From Breznakia sp. PF5-3 (GTDB taxonomy: Bacteria; Bacillota_I; Bacilli_A; Erysipelotrichales; Erysipelotrichaceae): 32,000 bases of DNA. Of this stretch, positions 1-31,887 are shown piece by piece; within the stretch, counting starts at the first letter, position 1; every line of letters begins with the position of its first letter. The notes beneath the pieces are model-generated. The model saw only the letters and a program-made list of their open reading frames with translations, made no database searches and was not told the DNA's origin. The position numbers and the translations under genes are program-made. The DNA lies in assembly GCF_029504745.1 (NCBI RefSeq), contig NZ_JAQFIQ010000027.1, positions 1,418 through 33,417 on the forward strand, given 5' to 3'.

Positions 1-873
1 AGGAGCCCAAGCATAAAGAGCCTTCTTTAAATCAATAACTTCTTTTTGTGGTTCCACCTCTAGACGATATGCATCAGGAACAGGGTGCTTTTTACTATGA
101 TATTTCGCATAAGCAAAGGTTGTAATTAAAGAACAGACACTACCAACAATCACAGGTAATTCAGCACCAATGAAGCGAGCAACAAGGATTTCTGGCAAAA
201 TATATGAAATAGCTGATAATGTTGTTAATAGGGTTATACCTTTTAATGATTTGAATCCTTTTCCTGTTAAAATAACCATTAAGAAAGGAGATATAAAAAG
301 TAATGGTGTAGCTTGTATTGTTTGAACAAAACCCAAAATAATTGGATCTAAATGGGTTAGGTTTGAAAGCGTTACTGTGGGAATACCAATGGACCCAAAC
401 ATGGTTGGCATTCCATTGGCAATCAAACATACAAGAATTGCTTTTACGGGTTGAAATCCCAGTGCACATAACATACTTGCAGGAATAGCAATGGCAGTTC
501 CAAATCCAGCAATACCTTCAAGAAACCCTCCAAAACACCATCCAACAAGAAGCACTAAGATACGCTTATCATAACTAACAGAGGTAATCATTGATTTAAT
601 TGTATTCATCGCCCCAGAATAAACGGTTAGATTATATGTGAATACCGCAGCAATGATGACTAGGATGATGGGCCATAAAGCCATAGCAAAACCTTCCAAA
701 GCAGCACTACTGGCATCTAAAAGGGACATTTTCCACACTAAAATAGCAAGGAAAAAAGCAATTACAAGTGCTATGATACTTGCTTTAAAGCCTGCCATTT
801 TAAATTTTGTAAGTGCTATGATCAACCATATGATTGGAGCCAAAGCTAAAAGAAACATTAAAAATAGTTGCAT
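1..873 (-). CDS. lctP: L-lactate permease (LctP/LldP family), N-terminal 291 codons; gene runs off the left edge
   Basis: Absent from the ORF track because it has no stop in the window. Hand translation of the minus strand from ATG 873-871 (GGAG upstream) stays open to position 1: MQLFLMFLLALAPIIWLIIALTKFKMAGFKA...LWPIILVIIAAVFTYNL...LVGWCFGGFLEGIAGFGTAIAIPASML...ARFIGAELPVIVGSVCSLIT...ALYAWAP. These blocks match conserved LctP blocks remembered from E. coli LldP ([32 protein letters not shown], RAWTP). Confidence 0.85.
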   Translation of the reverse strand, partial: MQLFLMFLLALAPIIWLIIALTKFKMAGFKASIIALVIAFFLAILVWKMSLLDASSAALEGFAMALWPIILVIIAAVFTYNLTVYSGAMNTIKSMITSVSYDKRILVLLVGWCFGGFLEGIAGFGTAIAIPASMLCALGFQPVKAILVCLIANGMPTMFGSIGIPTVTLSNLTHLDPIILGFVQTIQATPLLFISPFLMVILTGKGFKSLKGITLLTTLSAISYILPEILVARFIGAELPVIVGSVCSLITTFAYAKYHSKKHPVPDAYRLEVEPQKEVIDLKKALYAWAP

Positions 874-9155: not shown

Positions 9156-9304
9156 AAGCTGATGATTTTATAGTATAAGTTTTATATTGGAGATATATAG
9201 CATATAATAAAAGAACAAAATGCTCTTTTATTATAACTTTTTCTCTTAAATTACTTAATAATAAAATGTTTAGAGTATATAATAGTAGTGAGGTAAGATA
9301 CAGT

Positions 9305-9985
9305 ATGAAAAAAATATTAATCATTGAAGACGAAGCGAGTATTAGAAAACTGGTTGCATATGATTTAAAACAAGTAGGTTATGATGTATATGAAGCAGAA
9401 GATGGATTGCAAGCAAAGGAAATGATAGAGAATGATACTTATGATTTGCTTTTAATCGATTGGATGATTCCCCATATAAGTGGAATCGAATTGGTTAAAC
9501 ATTTTCGTGCAAGAGATGTACATAGCGTTTTTATAATGCTGACAGCAAAAGATGAAGAAGAAAATATTCTTGAAGCGTTTGAAGCAGGTGTAGATGATTA
9601 TGTTTCAAAACCTTTTTCGCCTCGTGTATTGTTAGCACGTATTAACTCACATTTAAAAAATAAAGAAAGCACTAGTAGCAATGTATTCGCAGATCTTGAG
9701 ATTGATGAAAAGAAACGAAAGGTTATGATTGGGAATGAAGAGTTGATTCTAACCAAAAAAGAGTATGATCTTTTATGTTACTTTATTATGAATGCAAACA
9801 TTGTATTATCTAGAGATCAGATTTTAAATGATATTTGGGGATTTGATTATGATGGAGATACAAGAATTGTAGATGTTCATACATTTAAATTGCGTAGCAA
9901 ATTAAAAGAAAGTCAAGTTGAAATCAACTCGAGTCGAGGAGTTGGATATATTTTGGAGGAAAAGAATGAAGAAAGAAAGGATTAG
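9305..9985 (+). CDS. phoP: OmpR/PhoB-family response regulator, PhoP-like by context
   Basis: Receiver domain (KILIIEDE...DLLLIDWMIP...LTAK) plus winged-helix output (LTKKEYDLL...VDVH...LR.KL...RGVGY). Start at ATG 9305 after GAGGT. Lies directly upstream of an HK and the pst operon. Confidence 0.65.
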   Translation: MKKILIIEDEASIRKLVAYDLKQVGYDVYEAEDGLQAKEMIENDTYDLLLIDWMIPHISGIELVKHFRARDVHSVFIMLTAKDEEENILEAFEAGVDDYVSKPFSPRVLLARINSHLKNKESTSSNVFADLEIDEKKRKVMIGNEELILTKKEYDLLCYFIMNANIVLSRDQILNDIWGFDYDGDTRIVDVHTFKLRSKLKESQVEINSSRGVGYILEEKNEERKD

Positions 9986-11186
9986 TGAAATCCTAACGGT
10001 TTTAGTTTTTGCATTATTAGCATTGGGTGTATTTCAAATTCACCCATTTTTAGTAGTGCTAGCAATGACTGCTACATTTATATATATTCTTTATAGAAAT
10101 GATAATGAATTTGAACAACGCTCACGGATGGAAAGCAATCAACTAGCAAATCGCGTGAAAACAACAGCCTCGGATGCATATTTGAAACAAAAGCGATTAT
10201 ACACACTTGTAGCTAATATTCCATTACCTCTTGTTTTGTTGAATATAGATGGAAAAGTAGTTCTGTATAATTCTTTTTTTGAGGTTTTTCGTGATAACAA
10301 GGATGATCGCGAATTGACGTATAATAAAAATGATTTTGAAAAAGACATTCATAAGTTTGTAAATGATGCTTTTATTTTTGAACGGAATATCGATAAAACA
10401 ATGAGTGTTAAGGGAAAAGAATATCAGGCAATCAGTGTTCCCATTACGACAGAAGGGAAGTTTAGTGGTTGTGTTGTGTTGTTTCAAGATATTTCAAAAG
10501 CGAAAGAAAAGGAGCAAATGCAAAAGGAATTTATTGCAGATGCTTCTCATGAATTAAAAACACCAATTAGTGCAATTAAAGGAATGATTGAAATTTTAAA
10601 TCGTGATTCTTTTGATGATGAAGAAATAAGAAAAGAATTTATGATTCAAATTCAAAAAGAAAATGATCGTTTAGAAGCCATTGTTAGAGACTTATTACAA
10701 TTATCTAGGCTATCTAGTGATGTACTTGTATTGAAAAGAGATTCTATGGATTTTACAAGAATTCTTGATGCAAGTATATCTTCTTTACAACAAAAAGCAG
10801 AAAATAAGGGCTTGAAAATTGTAGCAGATTATCAAACCCATGAGGATGTCTTTGTAGACTTTGAACAAATGGAAGTAGTGGTAAATAATTTGTTGAATAA
10901 TGCGATTGCATATAGTGATTCAGGGACGATTACTTTACGAACATATAAAAAAGATGATTATTATGTATTTGAAATACAAGATGAAGGAAGAGGTTTAAGT
11001 GAAGAAAATACGCATAAGATTTTTGAACGGTTCTATCGAGTCGATAAAGCTCGCTCTCGCTTGAGTGGTGGTTCGGGATTAGGTTTATCAATTGTAAAAT
11101 CAATTTTAGAAGCCCATAATGCAATTTTAGAAGTGGAGAGTGAGGAGAATAAAGGGTCCGTTTTTAGAATTTTAATAAAGTATTAA
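9966..11186 (+). CDS. phoR: sensor histidine kinase, PhoR-like by context
   Basis: N-terminal TM segments, H-box FIADASHELKTPISAIKG, N box (NLLNNAIAYS), G boxes (DEGRGL, GGSGLGLSIVK). ATG 9966 follows GGAGGA and overlaps the regulator's stop. Confidence 0.65.
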   Translation: MKKERISEILTVLVFALLALGVFQIHPFLVVLAMTATFIYILYRNDNEFEQRSRMESNQLANRVKTTASDAYLKQKRLYTLVANIPLPLVLLNIDGKVVLYNSFFEVFRDNKDDRELTYNKNDFEKDIHKFVNDAFIFERNIDKTMSVKGKEYQAISVPITTEGKFSGCVVLFQDISKAKEKEQMQKEFIADASHELKTPISAIKGMIEILNRDSFDDEEIRKEFMIQIQKENDRLEAIVRDLLQLSRLSSDVLVLKRDSMDFTRILDASISSLQQKAENKGLKIVADYQTHEDVFVDFEQMEVVVNNLLNNAIAYSDSGTITLRTYKKDDYYVFEIQDEGRGLSEENTHKIFERFYRVDKARSRLSGGSGLGLSIVKSILEAHNAILEVESEENKGSVFRILIKY

Positions 11187-22205: not shown

Positions 22206-22943
22206 ATGGAAAGATTCAAAATAAAAAATATAGACATAGGAAGTGGAAAAACAAAGATATGTGTTCCAATTACAGGAACAACACAGGATGAAATAATTAA
22301 AAATGTAAAAGCTATAGCAAAAACACATGCAGATATGGTAGAATGGCGTAGTGATTATTATGAAGATTGTCATGATATCAGTAAAGTTGTTGAAGTGTTG
22401 AAAATGATTAATGAATGTATTCCAGAGAAACCGCTTATTTTCACTTTCCGAACAAAATCGGAAGGTGGGCAAATCGCAATTACAGCACCAGAATATTTAT
22501 TGCTTTATAAAACAGCGATGCTTAGTAAGAAAGTGGATTTTGTAGATGTGGAAGCACTTCGTGAAGAGGCAGTAATCAAAAATATTTTGAAGCATGCGAA
22601 AACGGCAGGAATTAAAGTGATTTTATCGCATCATGATTTTGCTTCAACACCACCTGAGGAAAAGATAGTTCAACGTTTAAAAATAATGAAAGAATTTGGT
22701 GCAGATATATGTAAGGTTGCATATATGCCAAGAAATGAAGCAGATGTACAAGCGCTTATCAGCGCAGCTGAAAATGCTAAACAAAATAATTTATTATTTA
22801 TTGCGATATCTATGGGTGTGTTAGGCGAAGTTACAAGGATAAGAGCAAATGCACTTGGATCTTGTGTTACCTTTGCTTATGTAAATAAGGAGAGTGCACC
22901 AGGTCAAATTGATGTTGAAAAGTTATACAGTATATTGGAATAA
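22206..22943 (+). CDS. aroD: type I 3-dehydroquinate dehydratase
   Basis: 245 aa with KICVPITG, VEWR.D, SHHDF..TP and the Schiff-base lysine context CKVAYMP. Confidence 0.88.
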   Translation: MERFKIKNIDIGSGKTKICVPITGTTQDEIIKNVKAIAKTHADMVEWRSDYYEDCHDISKVVEVLKMINECIPEKPLIFTFRTKSEGGQIAITAPEYLLLYKTAMLSKKVDFVDVEALREEAVIKNILKHAKTAGIKVILSHHDFASTPPEEKIVQRLKIMKEFGADICKVAYMPRNEADVQALISAAENAKQNNLLFIAISMGVLGEVTRIRANALGSCVTFAYVNKESAPGQIDVEKLYSILE

Positions 22944-23018
22944 ATAAAAATTTATATGAAATAGAAATAAGGAAATAAGAATAGGATTTCAAAAGAAATA
23001 CTATATTTATATTTAATG

Positions 23019-23074
23019 AAGGGCAAACTATCATCTTTTACTTTTTTTAGTTAAGATATGTTGCCCTTTTATTA
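23019..23074 (+). terminator. long imperfect hairpin plus T-run after aroD
   Basis: AAGGGCAA (23019-23026) pairs with TTGCCCTT (23061-23068), with inner pairing ATCTT/AAGAT, followed by TTTATT. Confidence 0.45.
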
Positions 23075-23134
23075 TGCAATAAAGGGGTGATAATCTTAAC
23101 TATTTTAATTTTATATAGAAAAAAGTGTAAGATG

Positions 23135-23163
23135 TGAACCTTTTTGATGTAAAAAGTGTCTAA
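23135..23163 (+). promoter_or_regulatory. ECF-type promoter copy P1 (TGAAC-N18-GTCTAA)
   Basis: TGAAC 23135-23139 and GTCTAA 23158-23163, followed by TTAATGAAGGG. Same motif, spacing and downstream bases as P2 and P3. Lies 54 nt before the sigma-fragment ORF. Confidence 0.6.
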
Positions 23164-23216
23164 TTAATGAAGGGATAATTATTTGGAAGTAAAGTAAATA
23201 GGAAGGAAGTGCAAAT

Positions 23217-23564
23217 ATGGAAATCGGATCAGATGTTATTCTAGCAGTAAAAACAGAAATCGAAAATATGCCAGTAAAATATAAATTTATTGCATTGCTT
23301 TGGTATTTTGAAGAATTTACTGTTGTAGACATTTCAAATATTTTGAATATTCCAGAAGAAATCGTGGAAATTAGAATTGATAAAGTAGAAAGTATGATTC
23401 GTCCTACAATTTTGGTAGAAGGAATGACTTCGGCAAGAAAGTATTCAAAACATTTTCCTGTTGTGGTTTCAAAGGCGTTTGATTTGATTATTAAGAGTTA
23501 TCAGATGCCTGCTGAAACAGAGAGTAGAATATATGTAAACATTTTAAATACATGTCTTTCATAA
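23217..23564 (+). pseudogene. truncated paralog of the sigma fusions: region 4 plus juxtamembrane segment only (115 aa); gene remnant or sigma4-only protein
   Basis: ILAVKTEIENMPVKYKFIALLWYFEEFTVVDISNILNIPEEIVEIRIDKVESMIRP aligns with SF1 ISTIKTEIENMPNTLVQVAQLRYFEDFTTREISEIMDIPEGTVKTRLNKVRKIIQP. Region 2, the TM span and the C-terminal domain are missing, and the GTVK.R helix is degraded to EIVEIR. The ORF is intact with an SD-like GGAAGGAAG. Confidence 0.55.
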
Positions 23565-23592
23565 AATGGAAAAAATATATATAGAAAAAAGT

Positions 23593-23630
23593 AGCAGATA
23601 GAACAACGTGTTTTATTTGCTTTTTATTTT
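23593..23630 (+). terminator. hairpin plus T-run after the sigma-fragment ORF
   Basis: AGCAGATA (23593-23600) pairs with TATTTGCT (23614-23621, one G-U), followed by TTTTTATTTT. Confidence 0.45.
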
Positions 23631-23771
23631 GAAAATGAAAATTATGCTATTTAAGTGAAAAATAGCATAGAATATTACACAATTGTAAATACTTATGGTA
23701 TGCTTTTAGTATGGAATTATTCTAATCAAAATTAGCAAATAGAAGATAAATGTTTATTTTTTTATAAAAAA

Positions 23772-23800
23772 TGAACGAAAAGAATAATGAAATTGTCTAA
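23772..23800 (+). promoter_or_regulatory. ECF-type promoter copy P2 (TGAAC-N18-GTCTAA)
   Basis: AATGAACGAAA...TTGTCTAAAT with TGAAC 23772-23776 and GTCTAA 23795-23800. Lies 75 nt upstream of the SF1 start. Confidence 0.65.
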
Positions 23801-23874
23801 ATTAAGAGGAAATTTGAATTTATTAAGGAAATATGCTAATTTTGTTTTGAATAATAAAAAAAAGGGAGCACATA

Positions 23875-25191
23875 ATGGGTAAAAAAAGTATTGATGTGAA
23901 ATATGTAAAACGATTGAAACAAGGCGATCCTGAAGCTTTTGAAGAAATCTTTCGTTTTTATAAAGACTCTATATATTATTTTTCCTTAACCTTTTTGAAG
24001 AATCGAGCAGATGCGGAAGAAATTGTTCAAGAAACCTTTATAACAGCAATGAAAAATATTGGTTCTTTGGAAAAACCGGCATCATTTCATTCTTGGCTTC
24101 ACAAAATAGCGTATAATAAATCAATGACCCTCTACAAAAAGAATAGCAAGAATGTACAACTAGATAGTGATTTTGATCTAGAAAACATGATTGAAGGAGA
24201 GGAAGGTCCAGCTGGTATGTTATCGCGTAATGAACTAATTTCAACTATAAAAACCGAAATTGAAAATATGCCTAATACATTAGTTCAGGTCGCACAATTG
24301 CGTTATTTTGAGGATTTTACAACCAGAGAGATTTCTGAAATAATGGATATTCCTGAAGGAACGGTTAAAACAAGGTTAAATAAAGTTAGAAAGATAATTC
24401 AACCAAAGCTTGATACAAAAGGGTTTTCTCCTGCAAAATATTTTTCATTTGCGTTTACACCAATAATGTTTAGTGCTTTCCAACAAATTATTGATTCACA
24501 TACTTTGTCAAATGCAGTAGCAAATAAGATGTTTGAAAATATGTCAGTAGCAATTGGTGGAGCGGCAGGATTAGCTGCAAGTGCAGGCGCAGCAGCAGGT
24601 TCTGCAGGTGCAGGTGCATCAAATGCAAGCAATGGATTGCTTACAGCAGCCAAGGTTGCAGTGGCAGCTGTTGCTGGAGGGTCTGGTGTCTATGGAGTTT
24701 ATAATGTAGTGCAATCAACAGGGCCTAATGTAGAGCAAATTTCATATTATAATGAAATAACGAATAAAGATATTGAGGTTGAAGTAATATTAAGTAAAAA
24801 AGAAAATGAAGAAGATATAAAAATATTGTATAATGGTAATGATGTAACATTTACTGCTGAAGACAAGACATTGACATTTGTAGCGAAAGCAAATGGTGAA
24901 TATGTAGTAGAAGTTGGCGGAACACAAAATATATTTACAATTTCCAACATTGATAAACAATCACCGGAGTTGATATCTGTCGAAAAGAGTGGAAATAGTG
25001 TGGTATTTTCATATAATGATGATGTTTCAGGAATTGATTTTGAAAAATCATATATTACTGTAAGTACAGGGGAAAAAATAAGCTTACCAACTAATAACGT
25101 AATCAATGGTGATTATAGTGGTAGTATAAAAGTAAACTTATATGATAAAGCGGGGAATGTTGCAGAATATGAAGTAGATTTAGATGCATAA
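23875..25191 (+). CDS. ECF-type sigma factor fused to a hydrophobic (predicted TM) span and a beta-rich C-terminal domain (SF1, 438 aa)
   Basis: aa 1-178 are sigma-70 region 2 (FYKDSIYYFSLTFLKNRADAEEIVQETF...FHSWLHKIAYN) and region 4 (VAQLRYFEDFTTREISEIMDIPEGTVKTRLNKVRK). aa 225-279 are Ala/Gly-rich and hydrophobic (…GLLTAAKVAVAAVAGGSGVYGVY). aa 280-438 show alternating-strand patterning with a DKQSP junction. SD AGGGAG lies 6 nt before the ATG. Confidence 0.8.
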   Translation: MGKKSIDVKYVKRLKQGDPEAFEEIFRFYKDSIYYFSLTFLKNRADAEEIVQETFITAMKNIGSLEKPASFHSWLHKIAYNKSMTLYKKNSKNVQLDSDFDLENMIEGEEGPAGMLSRNELISTIKTEIENMPNTLVQVAQLRYFEDFTTREISEIMDIPEGTVKTRLNKVRKIIQPKLDTKGFSPAKYFSFAFTPIMFSAFQQIIDSHTLSNAVANKMFENMSVAIGGAAGLAASAGAAAGSAGAGASNASNGLLTAAKVAVAAVAGGSGVYGVYNVVQSTGPNVEQISYYNEITNKDIEVEVILSKKENEEDIKILYNGNDVTFTAEDKTLTFVAKANGEYVVEVGGTQNIFTISNIDKQSPELISVEKSGNSVVFSYNDDVSGIDFEKSYITVSTGEKISLPTNNVINGDYSGSIKVNLYDKAGNVAEYEVDLDA

Positions 25192-25208
25192 TATAAATGG
25201 AGATGAAT

Positions 25209-26549
25209 ATGAAAAAAATAAGAAAAATAAAAATATTCTTTCTAATTGCAATAATGTTATTTGGAACCATTTTGGCGAGTAGCATTTTTCGTGCATCCAT
25301 AAGTGCAGATGATGAAACTAAAGTACATGTAAATGTCTATAGTAATTTATATTATAATAACAATGGTAATTATGAGGATATTCCAGTAGAAGGATTACCT
25401 TATGAAGCAGATGTAGTATTAGAAATACATGCTTCTACAAAGAAAGAATATGAAACGGTAATTGATTATAAAGATAAAGTAGGAACAGTAGTATATTCAT
25501 ATTATGATGGAGTGTTAAAAATTGATGATCGCAATGCTACACAAGAAGAATATGAAGCATTTATTGGCAATGGGATGTCAGATGTACTTTCAAGTAAGGA
25601 AAGAATATATACTTTACATTTGAAATCAACAGGTGAAGATGAAGGGTTGATAACTTGTGGTATTAATTTTCTTTTTAGACATCCAAGTGGAACAATTAAA
25701 TATTTGTATACATTGAAGCATAAAGGTTTATTTCATGGCGAAACATATGCTGTAAATTTTTATGATTATGATGGTTCTGTAATAAAAAGTGAACGTGTAA
25801 AACCAGGAACAGCTGTAGAAGTTCCAACGGTTAAAAGAGAAGGATATAATTTTCTTGGTTTCAATACGCTTGAAAATGGAACAGGTGAATATTATAAAGG
25901 TCAAGAAATAGTTGAAGATATGTCATTTTATGCTATTTATGAAAAAAAGATATATCGGGTAAATTATTATGTGGATGATGAATTATATACAACACGAGAA
26001 GTTGCTCATGGTGAAGATGCAGAAAATATTAAATTAAAAGACACAGCGAGTCGTAAATTTGTTGGATGGGACAAGAGCTTAAATAATGTTACTAGTGATT
26101 ATGATGTACATGCAGTATTTAAAACAATTAAACCTATACCAAGTCCGCCAAAAGATGCAGAAAAACCAAGTACAGATACTTCTATAAAAGAAAAGGAAGT
26201 TATTGCGAAGCCAAGTGAGGCAGTAACCCCAAAAGCAGAAATAGAACAAAAAGAACCATCAAAAAAAGATGAAAAAAAGGCAGCGAAAGTAAAAGCTAAA
26301 ATTAAAAAAACAAGTTCTATTGAAGGAAATGATACATTAGAAGCAGATAATAAAGCAGCTATAATAAATAATGATGATAATGCAGAGGTGATTGATTCAG
26401 AAGAGAAAGTATCAGCTTCTGTGGCAAGCAAAGAGGTGGGTTCATCAAAGGATGACACATTAATGAAACTATTGCCGTTTGCTGTTTCAACATTAAGCAT
26501 GTTGGTATTGTTATTATTGACGGTAAAAAGTAAGATTTTTAAAAGATAA
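25209..26549 (+). CDS. secreted/surface protein with two Listeria-Bacteroides (Flg_new-type) repeats, a K/E/P-rich stalk and a C-terminal hydrophobic anchor
   Basis: Signal peptide MKKIRKIKIFFLIAIMLFGTILASSIFRASISA. Repeat 1 is YAVNFYDYDGSVIKSERVKPGTAVEVPTVKREGYNFLGFN...SFYAIYEKK and repeat 2 is YRVNYYVDDELYTTREVAHGEDA...RKFVGWDKSLNNVTSDYDVHAVFK. The tail is LLPFAVSTLSMLVLLLLTVKSKIFKR, with no LPXTG. ATG 25209 lies 6 nt after GGAG and 17 nt after the SF1 stop. Confidence 0.7.
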   Translation: MKKIRKIKIFFLIAIMLFGTILASSIFRASISADDETKVHVNVYSNLYYNNNGNYEDIPVEGLPYEADVVLEIHASTKKEYETVIDYKDKVGTVVYSYYDGVLKIDDRNATQEEYEAFIGNGMSDVLSSKERIYTLHLKSTGEDEGLITCGINFLFRHPSGTIKYLYTLKHKGLFHGETYAVNFYDYDGSVIKSERVKPGTAVEVPTVKREGYNFLGFNTLENGTGEYYKGQEIVEDMSFYAIYEKKIYRVNYYVDDELYTTREVAHGEDAENIKLKDTASRKFVGWDKSLNNVTSDYDVHAVFKTIKPIPSPPKDAEKPSTDTSIKEKEVIAKPSEAVTPKAEIEQKEPSKKDEKKAAKVKAKIKKTSSIEGNDTLEADNKAAIINNDDNAEVIDSEEKVSASVASKEVGSSKDDTLMKLLPFAVSTLSMLVLLLLTVKSKIFKR

Positions 26550-26571
26550 GTAAAAAAACTTATCTTTTTTT
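26544..26571 (+). terminator. intrinsic terminator overlapping the surface-protein stop codon
   Basis: AGATAAGT (26544-26551) pairs with ACTTATCT (26558-26565), followed by TTTTTT. Confidence 0.7.
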
Positions 26572-26580
26572 AAAAATAAA

Positions 26581-26609
26581 TGAACGAAATGCTATTTTTA
26601 CTTGTCTAA
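26581..26609 (+). promoter_or_regulatory. ECF-type promoter copy P3 (TGAAC-N18-GTCTAA)
   Basis: AATGAACGAAA...TTGTCTAAAT with TGAAC 26581-26585 and GTCTAA 26604-26609. Lies about 400 nt upstream of the SF2 start. Confidence 0.65.
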
Positions 26610-26901
26610 ATAATGAGGTGGATAGAGAAGCTAGATGTATAAGAAACTTGATGCAATGAAAGAAGTAATAAATTTATGACCTAATATATTATGACCAAAT
26701 ATACTATACAACTTCTGGAGGGGCGTTATATATCGTAGATAAATAACTTGTATTATAATAATCAAAATTTTTAGACATTACACTCACATAATTGTTCATC
26801 GGAGGGGGATGAACCTAAGCGTATGGGAAGATAGGATTTTAGATAATAATTGAAATCTTATACATCTACAAGCATTGTTTAAGGCAGATTATTGAATTGA
26901 A

Positions 26902-26939
26902 AAGGAAAAGGTTCGTTTAACGAACTTTTTCCTTTTTAT
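26902..26939 (+). terminator. strong intrinsic terminator inside the P3-to-SF2 leader
   Basis: GGAAAAGGTTCG (26905-26916) pairs with CGAACTTTTTCC (26922-26933, one G-U). Flanking A/T pairs extend the stem, followed by TTTTT. Confidence 0.75.
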
Positions 26940-26953
26940 GCGAGGTGTTTTAA

Positions 26954-26982
26954 TTGTATTTTTATAGCGAGTGTGGTATTAC
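26954..26982 (+). promoter_or_regulatory. possible sigma-A-type promoter directly upstream of SF2
   Basis: TTGTAT (26954-26959), 17 nt, TGgTATTAC (26974-26982). Both hexamers are imperfect. Confidence 0.3.
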
Positions 26983-27007
26983 TATTGTGGGGAAAGCAAG
27001 GAGTAGT

Positions 27008-28285
27008 ATGAAGAGGCGGCAGATTGATACAAAGTATATAAAGCAGCTTAAGGAAGGCGATGAGTCTGCTTTTAACAAGGTTTTTGATTTTTACAAGGAT
27101 TCAATCTATTTTTTCGCATTGTCATATGTGAAAAATAGAGCGGATGCAGAGGAAGTAGTTCAAGAAGTATTTATTCAAGTATTAAAAAGTATACATACAC
27201 TAAAGAAGCTTGATTCTTTTGGATCGTGGTTGCATAAAATTGCTTATTATATGGCGATTAGTATTCAGCGCTCAAAAGGAAATCAACATATCCAATTAAA
27301 TGAAGAATACGATATAGAGAATATGGTAGTGGAGAAAGAAGGACCAGACAAGATGTTATCGAAGAATGAAATGGTGGAAAGGGTGCGTGAGGAGATCGAG
27401 AAGATGCCCCCCAAACTGACTAGGATAGCACAATTACGGTATTTTGAGGATTATTCAACAAGAGAAATTGCAGAAATTGTTGATATTCCAGAAGGAACGG
27501 TAAAATCAAGATTAAATAAAATAAGAAGAATGATGAAGCCGATTTTAGAGACAAATGGAATATCACCAAGCAAATATTTCTCATTTGCACTTACACCACT
27601 TATTGTGGAGGCAATGCAGTTGATAATGAATAAAAATAGTATGCCACAGGATGTAGGGGTTGGAATAAAATCACATGTATTAGCTAATGCTGGAAGCATA
27701 TGGCAAGAGTTAGCGAGCAATGAAAGTGTTCGTCAGGGGTTATCAAATATGACCAAAGCAGGATTAGCTTTAGCTACAGGTGGAGCTGGACTAATAGGAC
27801 TCAATGTTTTAAATGAACAACAAGGGATGCATATTGAAAAGGTGAATATACCAACTGAAATTTCTAAATATCCAATTGATGTGGAAATCCAAGTAGATAA
27901 AAACATTAATGATGAACATGTGGAAGTTGCCCATGAAAATGAAAACATCCACTTTGATGTGGAGAATGATAGACTCATTTTTGAAGCCAAAGAAGATGGT
28001 GATTATACAATTCAAGTAGATAATGATAAAATGATTATTCATGTAGAGAATGATGGAAGGAAACCACCTATATTTGTAGAAGTAGAACAAACAGAAGGTG
28101 GAATTCAATTGAATGTAGTAAAAGGCGAACGAATTTTGAATTATGATGATTCTTATATTATCTATCAAGGAGAGCAATATTCTTTTGATGAGCATGGTTT
28201 TATAGAAGGTGAGTTTGAAGGCGATATTCAGATTTATATTGTTGAAGAGGATGGACCAACAACCCAAATTCACCAACAAATTTAA
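27008..28285 (+). CDS. ECF-type sigma factor fused to a hydrophobic (predicted TM) span and a beta-rich C-terminal domain (SF2, 425 aa), paralog of SF1
   Basis: Region 2 is FYKDSIYFFALSYVKNRADAEEVVQEVF...FGSWLHKIAYY. Region 4 is IAQLRYFEDYSTREIAEIVDIPEGTVKSRLNKIRR. The hydrophobic span is KAGLALATGGAGLIGLNVL (aa ~249-268). The ~155-aa C-terminal part is collinear with SF1 but much more diverged. ATG 27008 lies 5 nt after AAGGAG. The track start 26954 is TTG inside the putative promoter. Confidence 0.8.
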   Translation: MKRRQIDTKYIKQLKEGDESAFNKVFDFYKDSIYFFALSYVKNRADAEEVVQEVFIQVLKSIHTLKKLDSFGSWLHKIAYYMAISIQRSKGNQHIQLNEEYDIENMVVEKEGPDKMLSKNEMVERVREEIEKMPPKLTRIAQLRYFEDYSTREIAEIVDIPEGTVKSRLNKIRRMMKPILETNGISPSKYFSFALTPLIVEAMQLIMNKNSMPQDVGVGIKSHVLANAGSIWQELASNESVRQGLSNMTKAGLALATGGAGLIGLNVLNEQQGMHIEKVNIPTEISKYPIDVEIQVDKNINDEHVEVAHENENIHFDVENDRLIFEAKEDGDYTIQVDNDKMIIHVENDGRKPPIFVEVEQTEGGIQLNVVKGERILNYDDSYIIYQGEQYSFDEHGFIEGEFEGDIQIYIVEEDGPTTQIHQQI

Positions 28286-28289
28286 TATT

Positions 28290-28323
28290 AAAAAAAGGCA
28301 ATTACTAGATGGTAATTGCTTTT
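28290..28323. terminator. bidirectional terminator between convergent SF2 and rarA
   Basis: AAAAAAA-GCAATTAC (28298-28305)-loop-GTAATTGC (28312-28319)-TTTT. Confidence 0.65.
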
Positions 28324-29587
28324 AACGTTTTTTTAGATTTGCCAATTTTGAGGTTCTTTGTTTCTGTTTTAATTTTTTCCAATTAGAGGCCAATGCTTTT
28401 TCATATTGGCTATTTTCATTTGGGTGATAGAAAGATTCATTCTTTAGCTCATCAGGCAAATATTGTATTTGATCTACTAGATCTAGTCGTGAATAATCAT
28501 ATTTATCCTCTTCCTTCATGCCTACAGGAGTAAGACGTAAATAAGATGGAACAGGATATGCATGATTTTTGATATGTGGCTTCACATTATCAATAGCATT
28601 GATTGCAGATTTACTCTTTGGTGACAAGCAAAGATCAATGATTGTATGAGCCAATGGGATGCGACCTTCAGGAAATCCAACTCGTTTGGATGCATCAATT
28701 GCCTGAATGCATCGACTTACAGCAGCTGGATTGGCGAGACCAATATCTTCATAAGCGGTTACGAGAAGCCTTCGTTCAATAGATTCTAAATCGCCAATTT
28801 CAATAAGAATTGCTAAATAGTATAGTGCTGCATCCACATCACTTCCACGAATAGATTTTTGAAAAGCACTCAGCAAATCATAATGATAATCTCCATCACT
28901 ATCAGAACTGATGTTAGGAATAAAGGCATACTTCTCTACTAGCTCTTCATCAATATCATTGCTAGCAACACTACAGATTTCTAAAATATTCAAAGCATAA
29001 CGAATATCTCCATTGCTTTGGGTTGCAATAAGCGCTAATGCTTTATCAGATATCTTTACTTTATCATTTAATCCATCCGGGCTTTTTACAGCTCGTTTTA
29101 ATGCTTCAACAATATCCTCTTTTTGTAACGCTTTGATTTCAAAAAGATGGGTACGACTACGAATTGCTGGATTGATTGAAAATAAAGGGTTTGCCGTTGT
29201 AGCACCAATCATGATAATACTACCATTTTCAATATGTGGTAATAAAAGATCTTGTTTATCTTTATTTAAGCGGTGAACTTCATCAATGATGACAATCATC
29301 CCAGGGAAGAATTTTGCTTCTTCAAAGATGATATCCAATTCTTTTTTATTTCCAGTTACAGCATTAAACAATCGATATTTTATATCCAATTCATTTGCTA
29401 AAACCATTGCTAGAGTAGTTTTACCAGTTCCTGGAGGTCCATAAAAAATCATTGAAAACAATTGTTTTTCTTCTAAACAGCGAGTAATTATTTTGTTTTC
29501 TCCAATTAGATGTTTTTGCCCGATGATATCCTCTATTTTTTGAGGACGCATTCGAAACGCTAAAGGTTTTTTTATCGTATTTTCCAT
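28322..29587 (-). CDS. rarA: replication-associated recombination protein A (AAA+ ATPase, MgsA/RarA)
   Basis: 421 aa with PLAFRMRPQKIEDIIGQKHL, Walker A GPPGTGKTT, Walker B IIDEVHR, and a C-terminal MgsA domain (HYDLLSAFQKSIRGSDVDAALYYLA). Confidence 0.9.
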   Translation of the reverse strand: MENTIKKPLAFRMRPQKIEDIIGQKHLIGENKIITRCLEEKQLFSMIFYGPPGTGKTTLAMVLANELDIKYRLFNAVTGNKKELDIIFEEAKFFPGMIVIIDEVHRLNKDKQDLLLPHIENGSIIMIGATTANPLFSINPAIRSRTHLFEIKALQKEDIVEALKRAVKSPDGLNDKVKISDKALALIATQSNGDIRYALNILEICSVASNDIDEELVEKYAFIPNISSDSDGDYHYDLLSAFQKSIRGSDVDAALYYLAILIEIGDLESIERRLLVTAYEDIGLANPAAVSRCIQAIDASKRVGFPEGRIPLAHTIIDLCLSPKSKSAINAIDNVKPHIKNHAYPVPSYLRLTPVGMKEEDKYDYSRLDLVDQIQYLPDELKNESFYHPNENSQYEKALASNWKKLKQKQRTSKLANLKKR

Positions 29588-29607
29588 ATATCTATTTTAT
29601 CATACTA

Positions 29608-30168
29608 TTACAAAAATAAATGCTCAATTAAGATTTTGATACCTAAAAAGACAAGAATGGAGCCACCGAATATTTCAGCATATTTTTGAAAGATAGTACC
29701 TAATTGTTTACCCATAAATACACAAAATAAACTTAATATAAATGTAACGATACCAATAATGGAACTTGCATAGATAATATTAACATTTAAAAAAGCAAAA
29801 CTAACACCTACTGCAAGTGCATCAATACTAGTAGCAATACCTAAGACGATGATATCTTTAAAGGTAAGTGATGTATCACATTTTTCTTCTTTCATTGTCA
29901 ATGATTCCTTAATCATTTTAATACCTATAATAAATAATAAAATAAAGGCAATCCAGTGATCTATACTTTGGATATATGAGGTGAACTTTGTTCCACATAG
30001 ATATCCAATAATTGGCATAAGTGCTTGGGAAAACCCAAATGTAAAAGCAAGAATAAAGGCGTATTTTTTTGTTTCTTCTTTTTTAAAACACATTCCTTTA
30101 GCAATGGATACAGCGGATGCGTCCATAGCTAAACCAACGCCGGTTAAAATAATTGTAATAATATCCAT
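29608..30168 (-). CDS. mntP: manganese efflux pump MntP
   Basis: 186 aa, six-TM duplicated-domain protein with GLAMDASAVSIA and SIDALAVGVSFA motifs. A yybP-ykoY riboswitch lies immediately upstream. Confidence 0.88.
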   Translation of the reverse strand: MDIITIILTGVGLAMDASAVSIAKGMCFKKEETKKYAFILAFTFGFSQALMPIIGYLCGTKFTSYIQSIDHWIAFILLFIIGIKMIKESLTMKEEKCDTSLTFKDIIVLGIATSIDALAVGVSFAFLNVNIIYASSIIGIVTFILSLFCVFMGKQLGTIFQKYAEIFGGSILVFLGIKILIEHLFL

Positions 30169-30186
30169 AATAATGTCTCCTTTTAA

Positions 30187-30306
30187 GAAAAAAAGACTTA
30201 TACGAAAAAATCGTATAAGTCTCGTTTTTTACAATAAGCCAGATCTGAAAAGATCAATATGTTGACTTAAACACTTGTCGAAAGACAAGATAACTACTCC
30301 CTTATG
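30187..30306 (-). promoter_or_regulatory. yybP-ykoY (Mn2+) riboswitch with terminator expression platform
   Basis: The minus strand reads AUAAGGGAGUAGUUAUCUUGUCUUUCGACAAG...GUCAACAUA...GGCUUAUUGU...CGAGACUUAU. It has the conserved GGGAGUAG and GAGAC blocks and AUAAG/CUUAU closing pairing. Next comes terminator AGACTTATACGA/TCGTATAAGTCT plus a U-run (plus-strand 30187-30222), whose 5' arm overlaps the aptamer 3' strand. Confidence 0.8.
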
Positions 30307-30314
30307 ACTATGCT

Positions 30315-30343
30315 ATTATATCAATATTTAAAAGAAGATTCAA
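30315..30343 (-). promoter_or_regulatory. sigma-A promoter of the riboswitch-mntP transcript
   Basis: Minus strand TTGAAT (30343-30338), 17 nt, TATAAT (30320-30315). The aptamer starts about 10 nt downstream. Confidence 0.65.
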
Positions 30344-30393
30344 TGAAAAGTTTCTTTCCAACATTTATGGTATAGTAAAGGCAGGTGATAAAA

Positions 30394-31356
30394 ATGAAAC
30401 AAATTCGTTATGGTATTCTTAGTGCAGCAACGATTGCACCAAGATTTATGAAAGGTGTAGAACTTAGTAAATATGGTGTGTTAGAAGCAGTAGCTTCTAG
30501 AGATTATAAAAGAGCGGAAGAGTTAGCAAATCGTTTTCATATTAAAAAAATATATGCTGATTATGATGCATTGTTTATGGATGAAGAAATCGATATTATC
30601 TATATTCCAACACCAAACTTTTTACATTATGAGCATTGTATGAAAGCTTTGAAAGCTGGTAAACATGTTGTTTGTGAGAAGCCTTTTATGTTGGAGGAAA
30701 AGCAGGCTAAAGAGGTTTTTGCTTATGCTAAAAAGAAACATCTCTTTGTTATGGAAGCACAGAAATCAGTGTTTTTACCAATTACAAAATGGTTGAAGCA
30801 AGCAATCTTAGAAGAATTGATAGGAACAATCGATTTTGTTCGTCTATCTTCGTATTATGCAGCAGGGGATGATAAGAGTAACTGGATGTATAGCCATCAA
30901 AAGGGTGGTGGGGTTTTTTATGGAAGTGGAAGTTATACAATTGAATATATGAAATATTTGTTTGATAAACCGATTGTTTCTTCGCAAGGAAGTGCGTTAA
31001 TTGGACCAACGGGAGTGGATGAAATAGGAACAATAAATCTAAATATAAATAATCAACATTTAGTGACAACAACGATTTCTAGATATGCTCCACTAGAGCA
31101 GGAAGCAATTTTCTATGGTCGTATAGGAAAGATTAAAATACCATATTATTGGCGTCCTAAACAAGCAATTATTGAATATAATGATGGAGAAAGTAAACTT
31201 ATTGAAATGGATTTTGAAAGTGAGTTTGTGTATGAAGTAGATCATATTAATGAATGTCTTGATAAGGGTCTATTAGAGAGCCCTATTATGCGACAAGAAA
31301 TCACTTTGGAATGTATAAAAATCATTGAAGATATTGTAAGAAAAGGGTATCGATAA
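30394..31356 (+). CDS. Gfo/Idh/MocA-family NAD(P)-dependent oxidoreductase
   Basis: N-terminal Rossmann IRYGILSAATIA, the family motif HVVCEKPF (EKP), about 320 aa. ATG 30394 follows AGGTGA. Confidence 0.8.
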   Translation: MKQIRYGILSAATIAPRFMKGVELSKYGVLEAVASRDYKRAEELANRFHIKKIYADYDALFMDEEIDIIYIPTPNFLHYEHCMKALKAGKHVVCEKPFMLEEKQAKEVFAYAKKKHLFVMEAQKSVFLPITKWLKQAILEELIGTIDFVRLSSYYAAGDDKSNWMYSHQKGGGVFYGSGSYTIEYMKYLFDKPIVSSQGSALIGPTGVDEIGTINLNINNQHLVTTTISRYAPLEQEAIFYGRIGKIKIPYYWRPKQAIIEYNDGESKLIEMDFESEFVYEVDHINECLDKGLLESPIMRQEITLECIKIIEDIVRKGYR

Positions 31357-31360
31357 TTGT

Positions 31361-31387
31361 TTAGCACTTCAATTGACAAAGCGCTAA
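31361..31387 (+). promoter_or_regulatory. CIRCE-like inverted repeat (possible HrcA operator) overlapping the hsp20 promoter
   Basis: TTAGCACTT-N9-AAGCGCTAA versus the CIRCE consensus TTAGCACTC-N9-GAGTGCTAA (8/9 and 7/9). The spacer contains TTGACA (31373-31378), with TATACT (31395-31400) 16 nt downstream. Confidence 0.45.
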
Positions 31388-31470
31388 TACAGAGTATACT
31401 ATAGAATTGTAGTTAGGGTATATACTCTAACGGTAAGTATTTTATTTTGGAAGGAAAAGAGGCGATATTT

Positions 31471-31887
31471 ATGAAATTCTTACCAAGTTTTAACGTATTT
31501 GATGATGTGTTTGATGATGCATTCAGAGGTTCATTCTTTAGTAAACCAGCTACTAATATGAAAACAGATATTAGTGAAAAAGATGGAAACTATTTCTTGA
31601 ATATGGAGTTGGCAGGTTATGATAAAGATGATATCAAAATTGCATTAAAAGATGGTTACTTAACCGTAACAGCAACTAAAAAAATGAATGATGAAAAGAA
31701 AGATGATGAAGGAAATGTGATTCGTCAAGAGCGATACAGTGGTACATGCTCACGTAGCTTCTATGTATCTGATGCAGTAAAAGAGGATGATATTAAAGCT
31801 AAATTTGAAAATGGTGAGCTAAAGATCACCGTTCCAAAAGCAGATAAAAAAGAAATTGAAACAAATAAATACATTTCAATCGAATAA
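31471..31887 (+). CDS. Hsp20/alpha-crystallin small heat-shock protein
   Basis: 138 aa with alpha-crystallin domain blocks (MKTDISEKDGNYFLNMELAGYDKDDIKIALKDGYLTVTA...RSFYV...I.AKFENGELKITVPK). ATG 31471 lies 8 nt after AAAGAGG. Confidence 0.88.
   Translation: MKFLPSFNVFDDVFDDAFRGSFFSKPATNMKTDISEKDGNYFLNMELAGYDKDDIKIALKDGYLTVTATKKMNDEKKDDEGNVIRQERYSGTCSRSFYVSDAVKEDDIKAKFENGELKITVPKADKKEIETNKYISIE

Follow-up and report, generated by a model that had tools for sequence, protein, structure and literature searches.

Extracytoplasmic function (ECF) sigma factors constitute a main route of environment sensing in bacteria, and the mechanistic knowledge on them stems mostly from two-protein pairs of a sigma and an anti-sigma factor. 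SigW-RsiW from Bacillus subtilis (ECF30) is the paradigm of regulated intramembrane proteolysis. SigW is soluble, and its separate zinc-finger anti-sigma factor is encoded downstream. Cleavage by RasP exposes an alanine-rich degron in RsiW, and SigW promoters follow the pattern TGAAAC-N16-CGTA. A DNA stretch of 32,000 nt from Breznakia sp. PF5-3 (contig NZ_JAQFIQ010000027.1, positions 1,418 to 33,417 of the forward strand; GC content ~31%), referred to as the window, encodes two ECF sigma factors of another layout. SF1 (open reading frame (ORF) 23875-25191; 438 aa) and SF2 (ORF 27008-28285; 425 aa) combine a sigma domain, a linker, a weakly hydrophobic stretch and a beta-rich tail in one polypeptide. 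SigW is their closest characterised relative, judged by sequence and structure of the sigma core, and the promoter type is similar (TGAAC-N18-GTCTAA for SF1 and SF2). In contrast to SigW, they have no RsiW-like partner, and the gene downstream of SF1 encodes a Flg_new surface protein.

The principle of a fused transmembrane ECF sigma factor is already known. IutY from Pseudomonas putida unites sigma and anti-sigma domains in one protein, which is processed by Prc and then by RseP (PMC5411451). SCO4117 (ECF52) from Streptomyces coelicolor has been studied genetically (PMC5826349), and ECF48, ECF52 and ECF53 have been predicted to act by proteolysis likewise (PMC8999054). An original prediction, made from the letters of this stretch, had implied that a sigma factor with such an extension was novel; IutY, SCO4117 and ECF48/ECF53 contradict this. 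IutY (ECF243) resembles SF1 and SF2 in the N-terminal cytosolic ECF sigma domain, a single span (marginal in SF1 and SF2), an extracytoplasmic C-terminus, predicted in the case of SF1 and SF2, and the lack of a separate anti-sigma gene. It differs as a Gram-negative, FecI/FecR-type protein that is connected to an outer-membrane TonB-dependent receptor and iron uptake and carries a FecR-like anti-sigma domain. SF1 and SF2 belong to a Gram-positive lineage, have a tandem immunoglobulin (Ig)-like ectodomain and are neighbored by surface-protein genes. Pfam detected no FecR domain (PF04773) in either protein, and no TonB-dependent receptor is associated with them.

ECF52, ECF48 and ECF53, too, carry a span and an extracytoplasmic domain fused to the C-terminus of an ECF sigma factor. 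They control their own expression, and activation by proteolysis has been proposed (PMC5826349, PMC8999054). Their own features are a zinc-finger anti-sigma domain between sigma and span, a proline-rich region and a carbohydrate-binding domain. SF1, in contrast, has no cysteine, another post-sigma4 segment and Ig-like modules, and while ECF52 has been reported to be exclusive to Actinobacteria, the SF1/SF2 family is found in Erysipelotrichales. SigI-RsgI from Clostridium thermocellum is a Firmicute system of paralogous sigma-sensor modules with diversified extracellular sensors, control of surface or extracellular assemblies and proteolytic signaling (PMC10328401). SigI, however, is not an ECF sigma factor, and the anti-sigma domain resides in a separate protein, RsgI, together with an autoproteolytic periplasmic domain. 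The SF1/SF2 family thus lacks the defining features of the IutY, ECF52/53/48 and SigW groups. No Firmicutes group that combines one span with an Ig-like tail appears in the main text of the ECF reclassification (PMC7826278). A literature search found no paper on the family.

Both sigma ORFs were present where the original prediction had placed them, and their reading frames are unbroken from sigma region 4 through to the C-terminus. Sigma70_r2 (PF04542) and Sigma70_r4_2 (PF08281) exceeded the Pfam gathering scores in both proteins and were confined to aa ~27-176, in line with the hits anticipated for the first ~180 aa. The remaining ~260 aa matched no Pfam family, and the NCBIfam search of the non-sigma halves yielded none either. 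TIGR02937 (sigma70-ECF) matched the two proteins with 91.3 and 101.5 bits (cutoff 42.9). Sigma regions 2 and 4 are present and regions 1 and 3 absent, as in ECF (group 4) sigma factors. The best specific NCBIfam model was SigW, with scores well below its cutoffs (NF007223, 119.6 and 115.6 bits versus 209; TIGR02948, 106.7 and 102.8 bits versus 243). SigW was also the best structural match of the SF1 sigma core in Foldseek against the PDB (5wur, 32% identity). In an AlphaFold model based on the family alignment, the sigma helices are followed by two further helices (Table 1), a low-confidence stretch (aa 229-278) and a confident beta-rich tail. Sigma2 and sigma4 are joined by a short linker, which is modelled with low confidence. 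The motifs KNRADAEE, SWLHKIAY, AQLRYFED, IPEGTVK, SP.KYFSFA.TP, NIDKQSPE and ENDGRKPP were all found in the sequences. A longer SF2 ORF could begin at a TTG codon at 26954, but translation probably starts at the ATG at 27008, which is preceded by the ribosome-binding site AAGGAG.

SF1 and SF2 align end to end with 38% identity. The sigma cores are 55% identical, the post-sigma4 helices 36%, the Ala/Gly-rich stretch with the span 26% and the tails 22%, a gradient that bears out the predicted contrast of conserved sigma halves and diverged C-terminal halves. Regions 2.4 and 4.2 are nearly identical, and SF1 and SF2 are therefore expected to read the same promoters. Together with the shared promoter motif described below, this fits the earlier idea of a diversified sensor on a fixed output.

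The non-sigma part defines a family. A full-length search yielded about 19 close relatives, full-length and 416-446 aa long, and those with names are Breznakia. The window has its closest database match in Breznakia sp. OttesenSCG-928-G09 (100% identity), and the genus belongs to the Erysipelotrichaceae. An exhaustive search with the non-sigma part (aa 180-438) returned 118 clusters at 50% identity, nearly all of 410-465 aa, with the matches at the C-terminus of the protein. An N-terminal ECF sigma domain was present in all ten distant members tested, and the tail is essentially confined to this sigma-fused layout. The single polypeptide of sigma domain, linker, span and beta-sandwich tail, first proposed from the two window genes, is thus real and conserved in at least 118 clusters. 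Named members are Breznakia or metagenome-assembled genomes of Coprobacillaceae. In a scan of a genome collection, generic ECF sigma factors dominated, and a single full-length relative was recovered (L001). SF1 and SF2 belong to an uncharacterised family of Erysipelotrichales.

Hydrophobicity was assessed by the best 19-residue Kyte-Doolittle window, for which 1.6 is the classical threshold. An equivalent position with a value of at least 1.6 was found in 82 of the 103 full-length relatives (median residue 242), with values up to 3.4 and usually a Lys or Arg just before the span. The family is thus characterised by a single span, with the N-terminus predicted to lie inside and the tail outside. 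The hydrophobic span of the original prediction therefore stands at the family level; in SF1 and SF2 themselves it is marginal (1.48 and 1.33, respectively). Since relatives carry a clear span at the homologous position, the same topology is strongly suggested for SF1 and SF2 as well.

Modelled separately, the tail reached a mean predicted local distance difference test (pLDDT) score of 92.9 and a predicted TM-score of 0.78. It consists of two small beta-sandwich modules, as had been read from its residue pattern, and the modules meet at NIDKQSPE. Foldseek against the PDB retrieved only generic tandem Ig-like domains (E ~1e-4), among them the IPT domains of c-MET, Ig1-2 of sDscam and NCAM, myomesin, intimin and Fn3-like modules of CbhA. 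No sequence relatives of the tail were found in the PDB. Pfam applied to 16 family tails gave only scattered sub-threshold matches, the best being Big_13 in one of the 16 members (E 0.014; 16.3 bits, below the cutoff of 27). The fold is therefore called Ig-like by modelled structure alone. Ig-like folds are typical of extracellular proteins. In the SF1 model, the tail is not packed on the sigma core, and a disordered stretch lies between them.

A canonical anti-sigma gene is absent from the locus, as originally stated: Pfam and NCBIfam gave no anti-sigma family, and no HxxxCxxC protein is encoded in 22900-28400. A zinc-finger anti-sigma domain is excluded within SF1 because the protein has no cysteine. 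The further statement that no small protein is encoded next to the sigma genes was mistaken. A 115-aa sigma4-like ORF lies upstream of SF1, and a membrane protein gene follows its stop codon; both had been missed, as had the ECF-type promoters. Distant matches (P0045-P0069) contain a Cys-rich motif after sigma4, unlike SF1. Apparent matches of the post-sigma4 profile to TALE repeats in the PDB were discarded as spurious sums, each single stretch having E > 400.

The motif TGAAC-N18-GTCTAA precedes SF1, SF2 and the small sigma4-only gene, and in relatives also large surface-protein genes. A pattern search found four matches in the window versus 0.15 expected, three of them on the plus strand (starting at 23135, 23772 and 26581). 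With up to one mismatch and a spacer of 18, 13 sites were counted in seven family loci (115 kb), all on the coding strand, compared with 2.5 +/- 1.3 sites on both strands of simulated sequence at the same stringency. Twelve of the 13 are located directly upstream of module genes, i.e. the small ORF (three genomes), sigma fusions (four loci) and large surface-protein genes. The latter encode an InlK_D3-like protein of 724 aa (L083/L084) and a protein of 4841 aa (L086/L087). In a genome scan, the exact motif also turned up at most 150 nt upstream of 11 unrelated ECF sigma genes and can hence be identified as an autoregulatory promoter of the standard ECF type. The predicted promoters of SF1, SF2 and their orthologs, with AAC in the -35 and GTC in the -10 element, match this type. 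By motif position, the family appears to autoregulate and to drive neighboring surface-protein genes. With near-identical promoter-recognition segments and tails of 22% identity, SF1 and SF2 look like two sensors feeding one regulon. Two additional matches, at 26772-26798 (minus strand, 17-nt spacer, inside the SF2 leader) and at 323-351 (plus strand, one mismatch, far off), are probably due to chance, as about 2.5 are expected at that stringency.

The gene order is conserved in relatives. Locus L085 from another species has exactly the order of the window, with radical SAM and DHquinase followed by a 114-aa ORF, a first sigma fusion, a Flg_new protein and the second sigma fusion, and then by rarA and mntP. 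From its N-terminus, the partner downstream of SF1 comprises a signal or anchor, a conserved domain of ~120 aa, Flg_new repeats and a low-complexity stalk, and it ends with a C-terminal membrane anchor and a short basic tail. Homologs immediately follow the sigma fusion in L081, L083, L085 and L086. Other loci continue from the sigma fusion via a Flg_new membrane protein, sometimes overlapping, to giant surface proteins of 891-4841 aa. In more distant members, LRR/Endotoxin_C2 proteins follow (LRR, leucine-rich repeat). Of the family members examined, all but the SF2 types and L091 have a gene for a secreted or surface protein as the next one downstream of the sigma fusion (L081, L083, L085, L086, L088, L090 and L092). 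The N-terminal domain of the partners (YYDGVLKIDGRNAS..EY) is predicted to be extracellular and precedes the Flg_new repeats; Pfam and NCBIfam assigned it to no family. A tandem arrangement occurs in L092 (1-11156), with an LRR/Endotoxin_C2 protein, a sigma fusion (475 aa), an LRR protein (629 aa), a second sigma fusion (465 aa) and another LRR protein (907 aa). This layout suggests one dedicated sigma factor per surface protein. A recurrence of the tail domain in neighboring surface proteins, which would have pointed to homophilic sensing, was not observed: a profile hidden Markov model of the tail matched only the sigma fusions in seven loci.

On this basis, SF1 and SF2 are probably single-polypeptide transmembrane sigma factors, which are inactive at the membrane, become released by proteolysis, autoregulate their synthesis and drive surface-protein genes. 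The sigma2-sigma4 core and the two conserved post-sigma4 helices would reside in the cytoplasm. A flexible Ala/Gly-rich tether would join them to a single, weakly hydrophobic, Gly-rich span, and the two Ig-like modules would be exposed outside the cell. The tethered sigma factor would be kept inactive by membrane sequestration, possibly with the post-sigma4 helices as a minimal inhibitory segment in cis. A cue sensed by the ectodomain, plausibly tied to the co-encoded surface proteins or their ligands, would lead to ectodomain trimming and then to intramembrane cleavage by a site-2 protease. The freed sigma factor would direct RNA polymerase to TGAAC-N18-GTCTAA promoters, i.e. to its own gene with the downstream Flg_new protein, to SF2 and to the sigma4-only small protein, and in relatives to giant adhesin-like surface proteins. 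Site-2 proteases favor helix-destabilised, Gly-rich, weakly hydrophobic spans, as in substrates of RseP and RasP, and Ala-rich ends act as Clp degrons in RsiW. The Gly-rich, weakly hydrophobic span and the preceding Ala-rich stretch are consistent with such a release. A release is inferred because of the precedents, the processing of IutY and the predictions for ECF48/52/53. The modelled sigma core superposes with a TM-score of about 0.7 on compact, anti-sigma-bound sigma factors (SigW-RsiW, CnrH-CnrY, EcfG-NepR) and of 0.3-0.4 on holoenzyme forms, which weakly supports an inhibited resting state.

Several observations weigh against this proposal. The compact sigma conformation may be a default of AlphaFold. 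The spans of SF1 and SF2 themselves fall below the classical hydropathy threshold, and no confident helix is modelled there (pLDDT <50 for aa 229-278). The linker contains no anti-sigma domain recognisable by Pfam or NCBIfam, neither a zinc-finger motif nor FecR, and the post-sigma4 profile matched no solved anti-sigma domain among the PDB sequences. In-cis inhibition by the post-sigma4 helices is speculative for this reason. A surface-protein gene is missing after the SF2 types and after P0151 (L091). The window contains no protease gene, and a signal peptidase gene is adjacent at one distant locus alone (L091). Proteolytic release and the nature of the signal are taken from analogy. Signal peptidase is the site-1 protease for RsiV. 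In L091 (54-2747), a single case, the family member is flanked by genes for a signal peptidase I (Peptidase_S26) and a sortase.

That no anti-sigma domain was detected, either by Pfam or by the post-sigma4 profile against the PDB, would also suit a sigma factor that works while anchored, with ligand binding or oligomerisation of the Ig-like modules as a switch without proteolysis. ToxR, CadC and TcpP act in such a membrane-anchored state. A stretch of 25-50 Ala/Gly/Ser residues, predicted to be disordered, between the post-sigma4 helices and the span would provide the reach to RNA polymerase and to DNA near the membrane, and it recurs in distant Clostridia fusions. Co-translational insertion of the secreted or membrane target proteins would bring the DNA near the membrane. 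No sigma factor, however, is known to work while membrane-tethered, and the Gly-rich, weakly hydrophobic span corresponds to the preference of site-2 proteases. IutY, the only hybrid with a characterised release, requires proteolysis (PMC5411451). An anchored active form is unlikely.

The position of the downstream gene, directly after the sigma fusion in most loci with a gap of 5-20 nt or an overlap, raises the question of whether regulation actually lies with this Flg_new or LRR membrane protein. In such a two-component arrangement, it would bind the Ig-like tail outside the cell and shield it from proteolysis until displaced. Its conserved N-terminal domain is predicted to be extracellular. 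Outer-membrane transducers are known to protect anti-sigma factors from proteolysis (PMC11637429). The SF2 types and L091, however, have no such partner, and the partner type varies by clade (Flg_new versus LRR/Endotoxin_C2) while the tail domain is constant. The Flg_new partners cannot carry a classical anti-sigma domain because only few of their residues are cytoplasmic. The partner may merely be the first regulated gene. A regulatory partner, considered quite unlikely, would refine the proposed proteolytic release and not exclude it.

The subthreshold hydropathy of SF1 and SF2 and the low AlphaFold confidence in this region would also be expected if no span existed and the tail were a cytoplasmic extension contacting the sigma core in the manner of ECF41/ECF42. 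Among the modes of ECF regulation, such C-terminal extensions rank second in frequency (PMC7826278). A hairpin is conceivable in principle for the SF1-type clade, whose members contain two weakly hydrophobic, Ala/Gly-rich stretches. This explanation is very unlikely: the span at the homologous position is unambiguous in most relatives (up to 3.4), the tandem Ig-like modules and the surface-protein neighbors point to an extracellular role, and the tail is separated from the core by the disordered stretch and unpacked in the model. An artefact of assembly or annotation, in which a sequencing error merged an ordinary sigma gene with a separate anti-sigma gene, is practically excluded by two independent paralogs with uninterrupted ORFs in the window and by the same unbroken layout in at least 103 full-length homologs, which come from many samples and assemblers and include Breznakia isolate genomes, so that the frameshift named as a refutation of the original prediction is ruled out as well.

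Beyond Erysipelotrichales, the profile of the SF1 post-sigma4 segment matched the equivalent segment of Clostridia sigma fusions with an hhalign probability of 72% (E 3.4e-5), and the two segments appear to be homologous by this comparison. The Clostridia proteins (P0020-P0043; 589-764 aa) possess the related post-sigma4 segment, an Ala/Gly/Ser-rich stretch and one clear span. Their ectodomains differ from the Ig-like type and comprise LRR and CAP domains. The comparison hints at a wider Firmicutes class of transmembrane sigma factors with exchangeable sensors. A far-reaching version of this idea assumes a large unrecognised class whose members share the post-sigma4 segment, an Ala/Gly tether and one span, carry interchangeable ectodomains (Ig-like in SF1 and SF2; LRR, CAP and further types in Clostridia) and each serve an adjacent gene for an adhesin-like surface protein. 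Tethering would be the sole inhibition, complemented by feedback from a sigma4 mimic with an acidified recognition helix and by a sigma-dependent small RNA or attenuator before the second paralog. In this full extent, the idea is tentative and rather doubtful. The features of the locus are compiled in Table 1.

Table 1. Features of the SF1/SF2 locus in window coordinates.
Feature	Position	Strand	Basis
ECF-type promoter-like motif before the small sigma4-only gene	23135..23163	+	Exact match
115-aa protein, paralog of SF1 aa ~118-225 (sigma4 and two post-sigma4 helices)	23217..23564	+	ORF, Pfam, NCBIfam, alignment
Terminator-like hairpin with T-run after the small gene	23593..23631	+	Hairpin search
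ECF-type promoter-like motif before SF1	23772..23800	+	Motif match; equivalent site in L085 at 4357
SF1 ECF sigma core (sigma2 and sigma4), aa 1-178	23875..24408	+	Pfam, NCBIfam, SigW structural match
SF1 post-sigma4 segment, aa 179-228: SPAKYFSFAFTP motif and helices 194-208 and 213-228	24409..24558	+	AlphaFold, alignment, profile comparison
SF1 Ala/Gly-rich low-complexity stretch and weak span, aa 229-279 (candidate span aa ~254-279)	24559..24711	+	Hydropathy, AlphaFold, relatives
SF1 tail, two tandem Ig-like beta-sandwiches (aa 280-358 and 359-438), including stop	24712..25191	+	Tail-only model, Foldseek
Downstream partner, 450 aa, starting 5 nt after the SF1 stop	25197..26549	+	ORF, Pfam, hydropathy
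ECF-type promoter-like motif ~400 nt before SF2	26581..26609	+	Motif match; equivalents in L085 (7685) and L093
Conserved non-coding leader with invariant block TGGAGGGGCG.TAT (about 26718-26733)	26610..26897	+	Comparison with L085 and L093
Terminator-like hairpin, 19-bp stem and U-run, ~70 nt before the SF2 start	26898..26941	+	dG -22.7 kcal/mol, z -5.2
SF2 ECF sigma core, aa 1-179	27008..27544	+	Pfam, NCBIfam, alignment to SF1
SF2 post-sigma4 helices and weak span (candidate aa ~250-269, at 27755-27814)	27545..27829	+	Hydropathy, alignment, relatives
SF2 tail, two Ig-like modules, 22% identical to the SF1 tail, including stop	27830..28285	+	Alignment/profile comparison
Bidirectional terminator-like hairpin between SF2 and the convergent rarA-like gene	28294..28323		Hairpin search

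The 115-aa protein encoded upstream of SF1 lacks region 2, a membrane span and a tail and has an acidic recognition helix (IPEEIVEIRIDKVE). It belongs to a small sigma4-only family of nine clusters (111-117 aa, 52-75% identity). The segment ISNILNIPEEIVEIRIDKVE, which corresponds to the DNA-recognition helix, is invariant or nearly so and represents the most conserved part of this family; the SF1 counterpart reads IPEGTVKTRLNKVR. The gene has its own ECF-type promoter motif in three genomes. The motif also precedes the orthologous small genes of L083, L084 and L085, in the last case with one mismatch. A 152-aa ORF in L092 was considered as a homolog of the small gene and turned out not to be homologous. 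Judged by its sequence, the 115-aa protein may be a sigma4 mimic or decoy. The sigma-like domain of PhyR, an anti-anti-sigma factor that works by sigma mimicry (PMC7826278, PMC8999054), is comparable: the 115-aa protein, too, is derived from a sigma factor, has lost its DNA-binding character and could mimic the sigma factor in a protein-protein interaction. PhyR differs in its full sigma2-sigma4-like domain with a receiver and titrates NepR, whereas the 115-aa protein consists of sigma4 and two helices without a receiver. The analogy is regarded as a lead.

The region before SF2 has a conserved organisation. An ECF-type promoter, a conserved leader of 220-290 nt and a hairpin occur in all three SF2-type loci (window; L085, 7685-8000; L093, 69-438). 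The hairpins share the relative position, and their stem sequences differ. The consensus fold of the three leaders was too weak for an interpretation, and small ORFs within the leader are not conserved. Rfam detected no family on the locus, with only a sub-threshold ohsC-like match on the hairpin. Between the hairpin and SF2 lies a conserved AT-rich block, which could be a housekeeping promoter. In L083 (13042-13500), a third ECF-type promoter and the start of the same leader are present without a following SF2 gene. This leader favors an independent transcript over a simple 5' untranslated region. For the SF2 leader, an attenuator and a sigma-dependent small RNA are both conceivable.

The remainder of the window (1-22950 and 28322-31887) contains housekeeping genes. 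They comprise tmk, holB, PSP1, an rsmI-like gene, FtsW/RodA, GNAT, a P-type ATPase, a two-component system, phosphate-binding proteins and ispE, as well as radical SAM, aroD, rarA, mntP, a Gfo/Idh/MocA oxidoreductase and Hsp20. The genes of a response regulator and a histidine kinase (9266-11186) overlap by ~68 nt if the kinase starts at TTG. PADLOC models of defence systems gave nothing meaningful.

Among the fused transmembrane sigma factors, the release mechanism has been studied for one alone, IutY from a Gram-negative bacterium. The SF1/SF2 family is a compact Gram-positive case, with a defined promoter motif and an adjacent surface- or adhesin-like output in the insect-gut symbiont Breznakia, and its two paralogs in the window differ mainly in the sensor. 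With its sigma4-only paralog, the locus may also contain a sigma-mimic regulator of a new kind. As one-gene sensor-output modules, members of the family could serve synthetic biology as orthogonal parts. For the biology of the group, the locus opens the questions of whether a sigma factor can be controlled by tethering alone, what the Ig-like ectodomains sense and how giant surface proteins are regulated in gut Erysipelotrichales.

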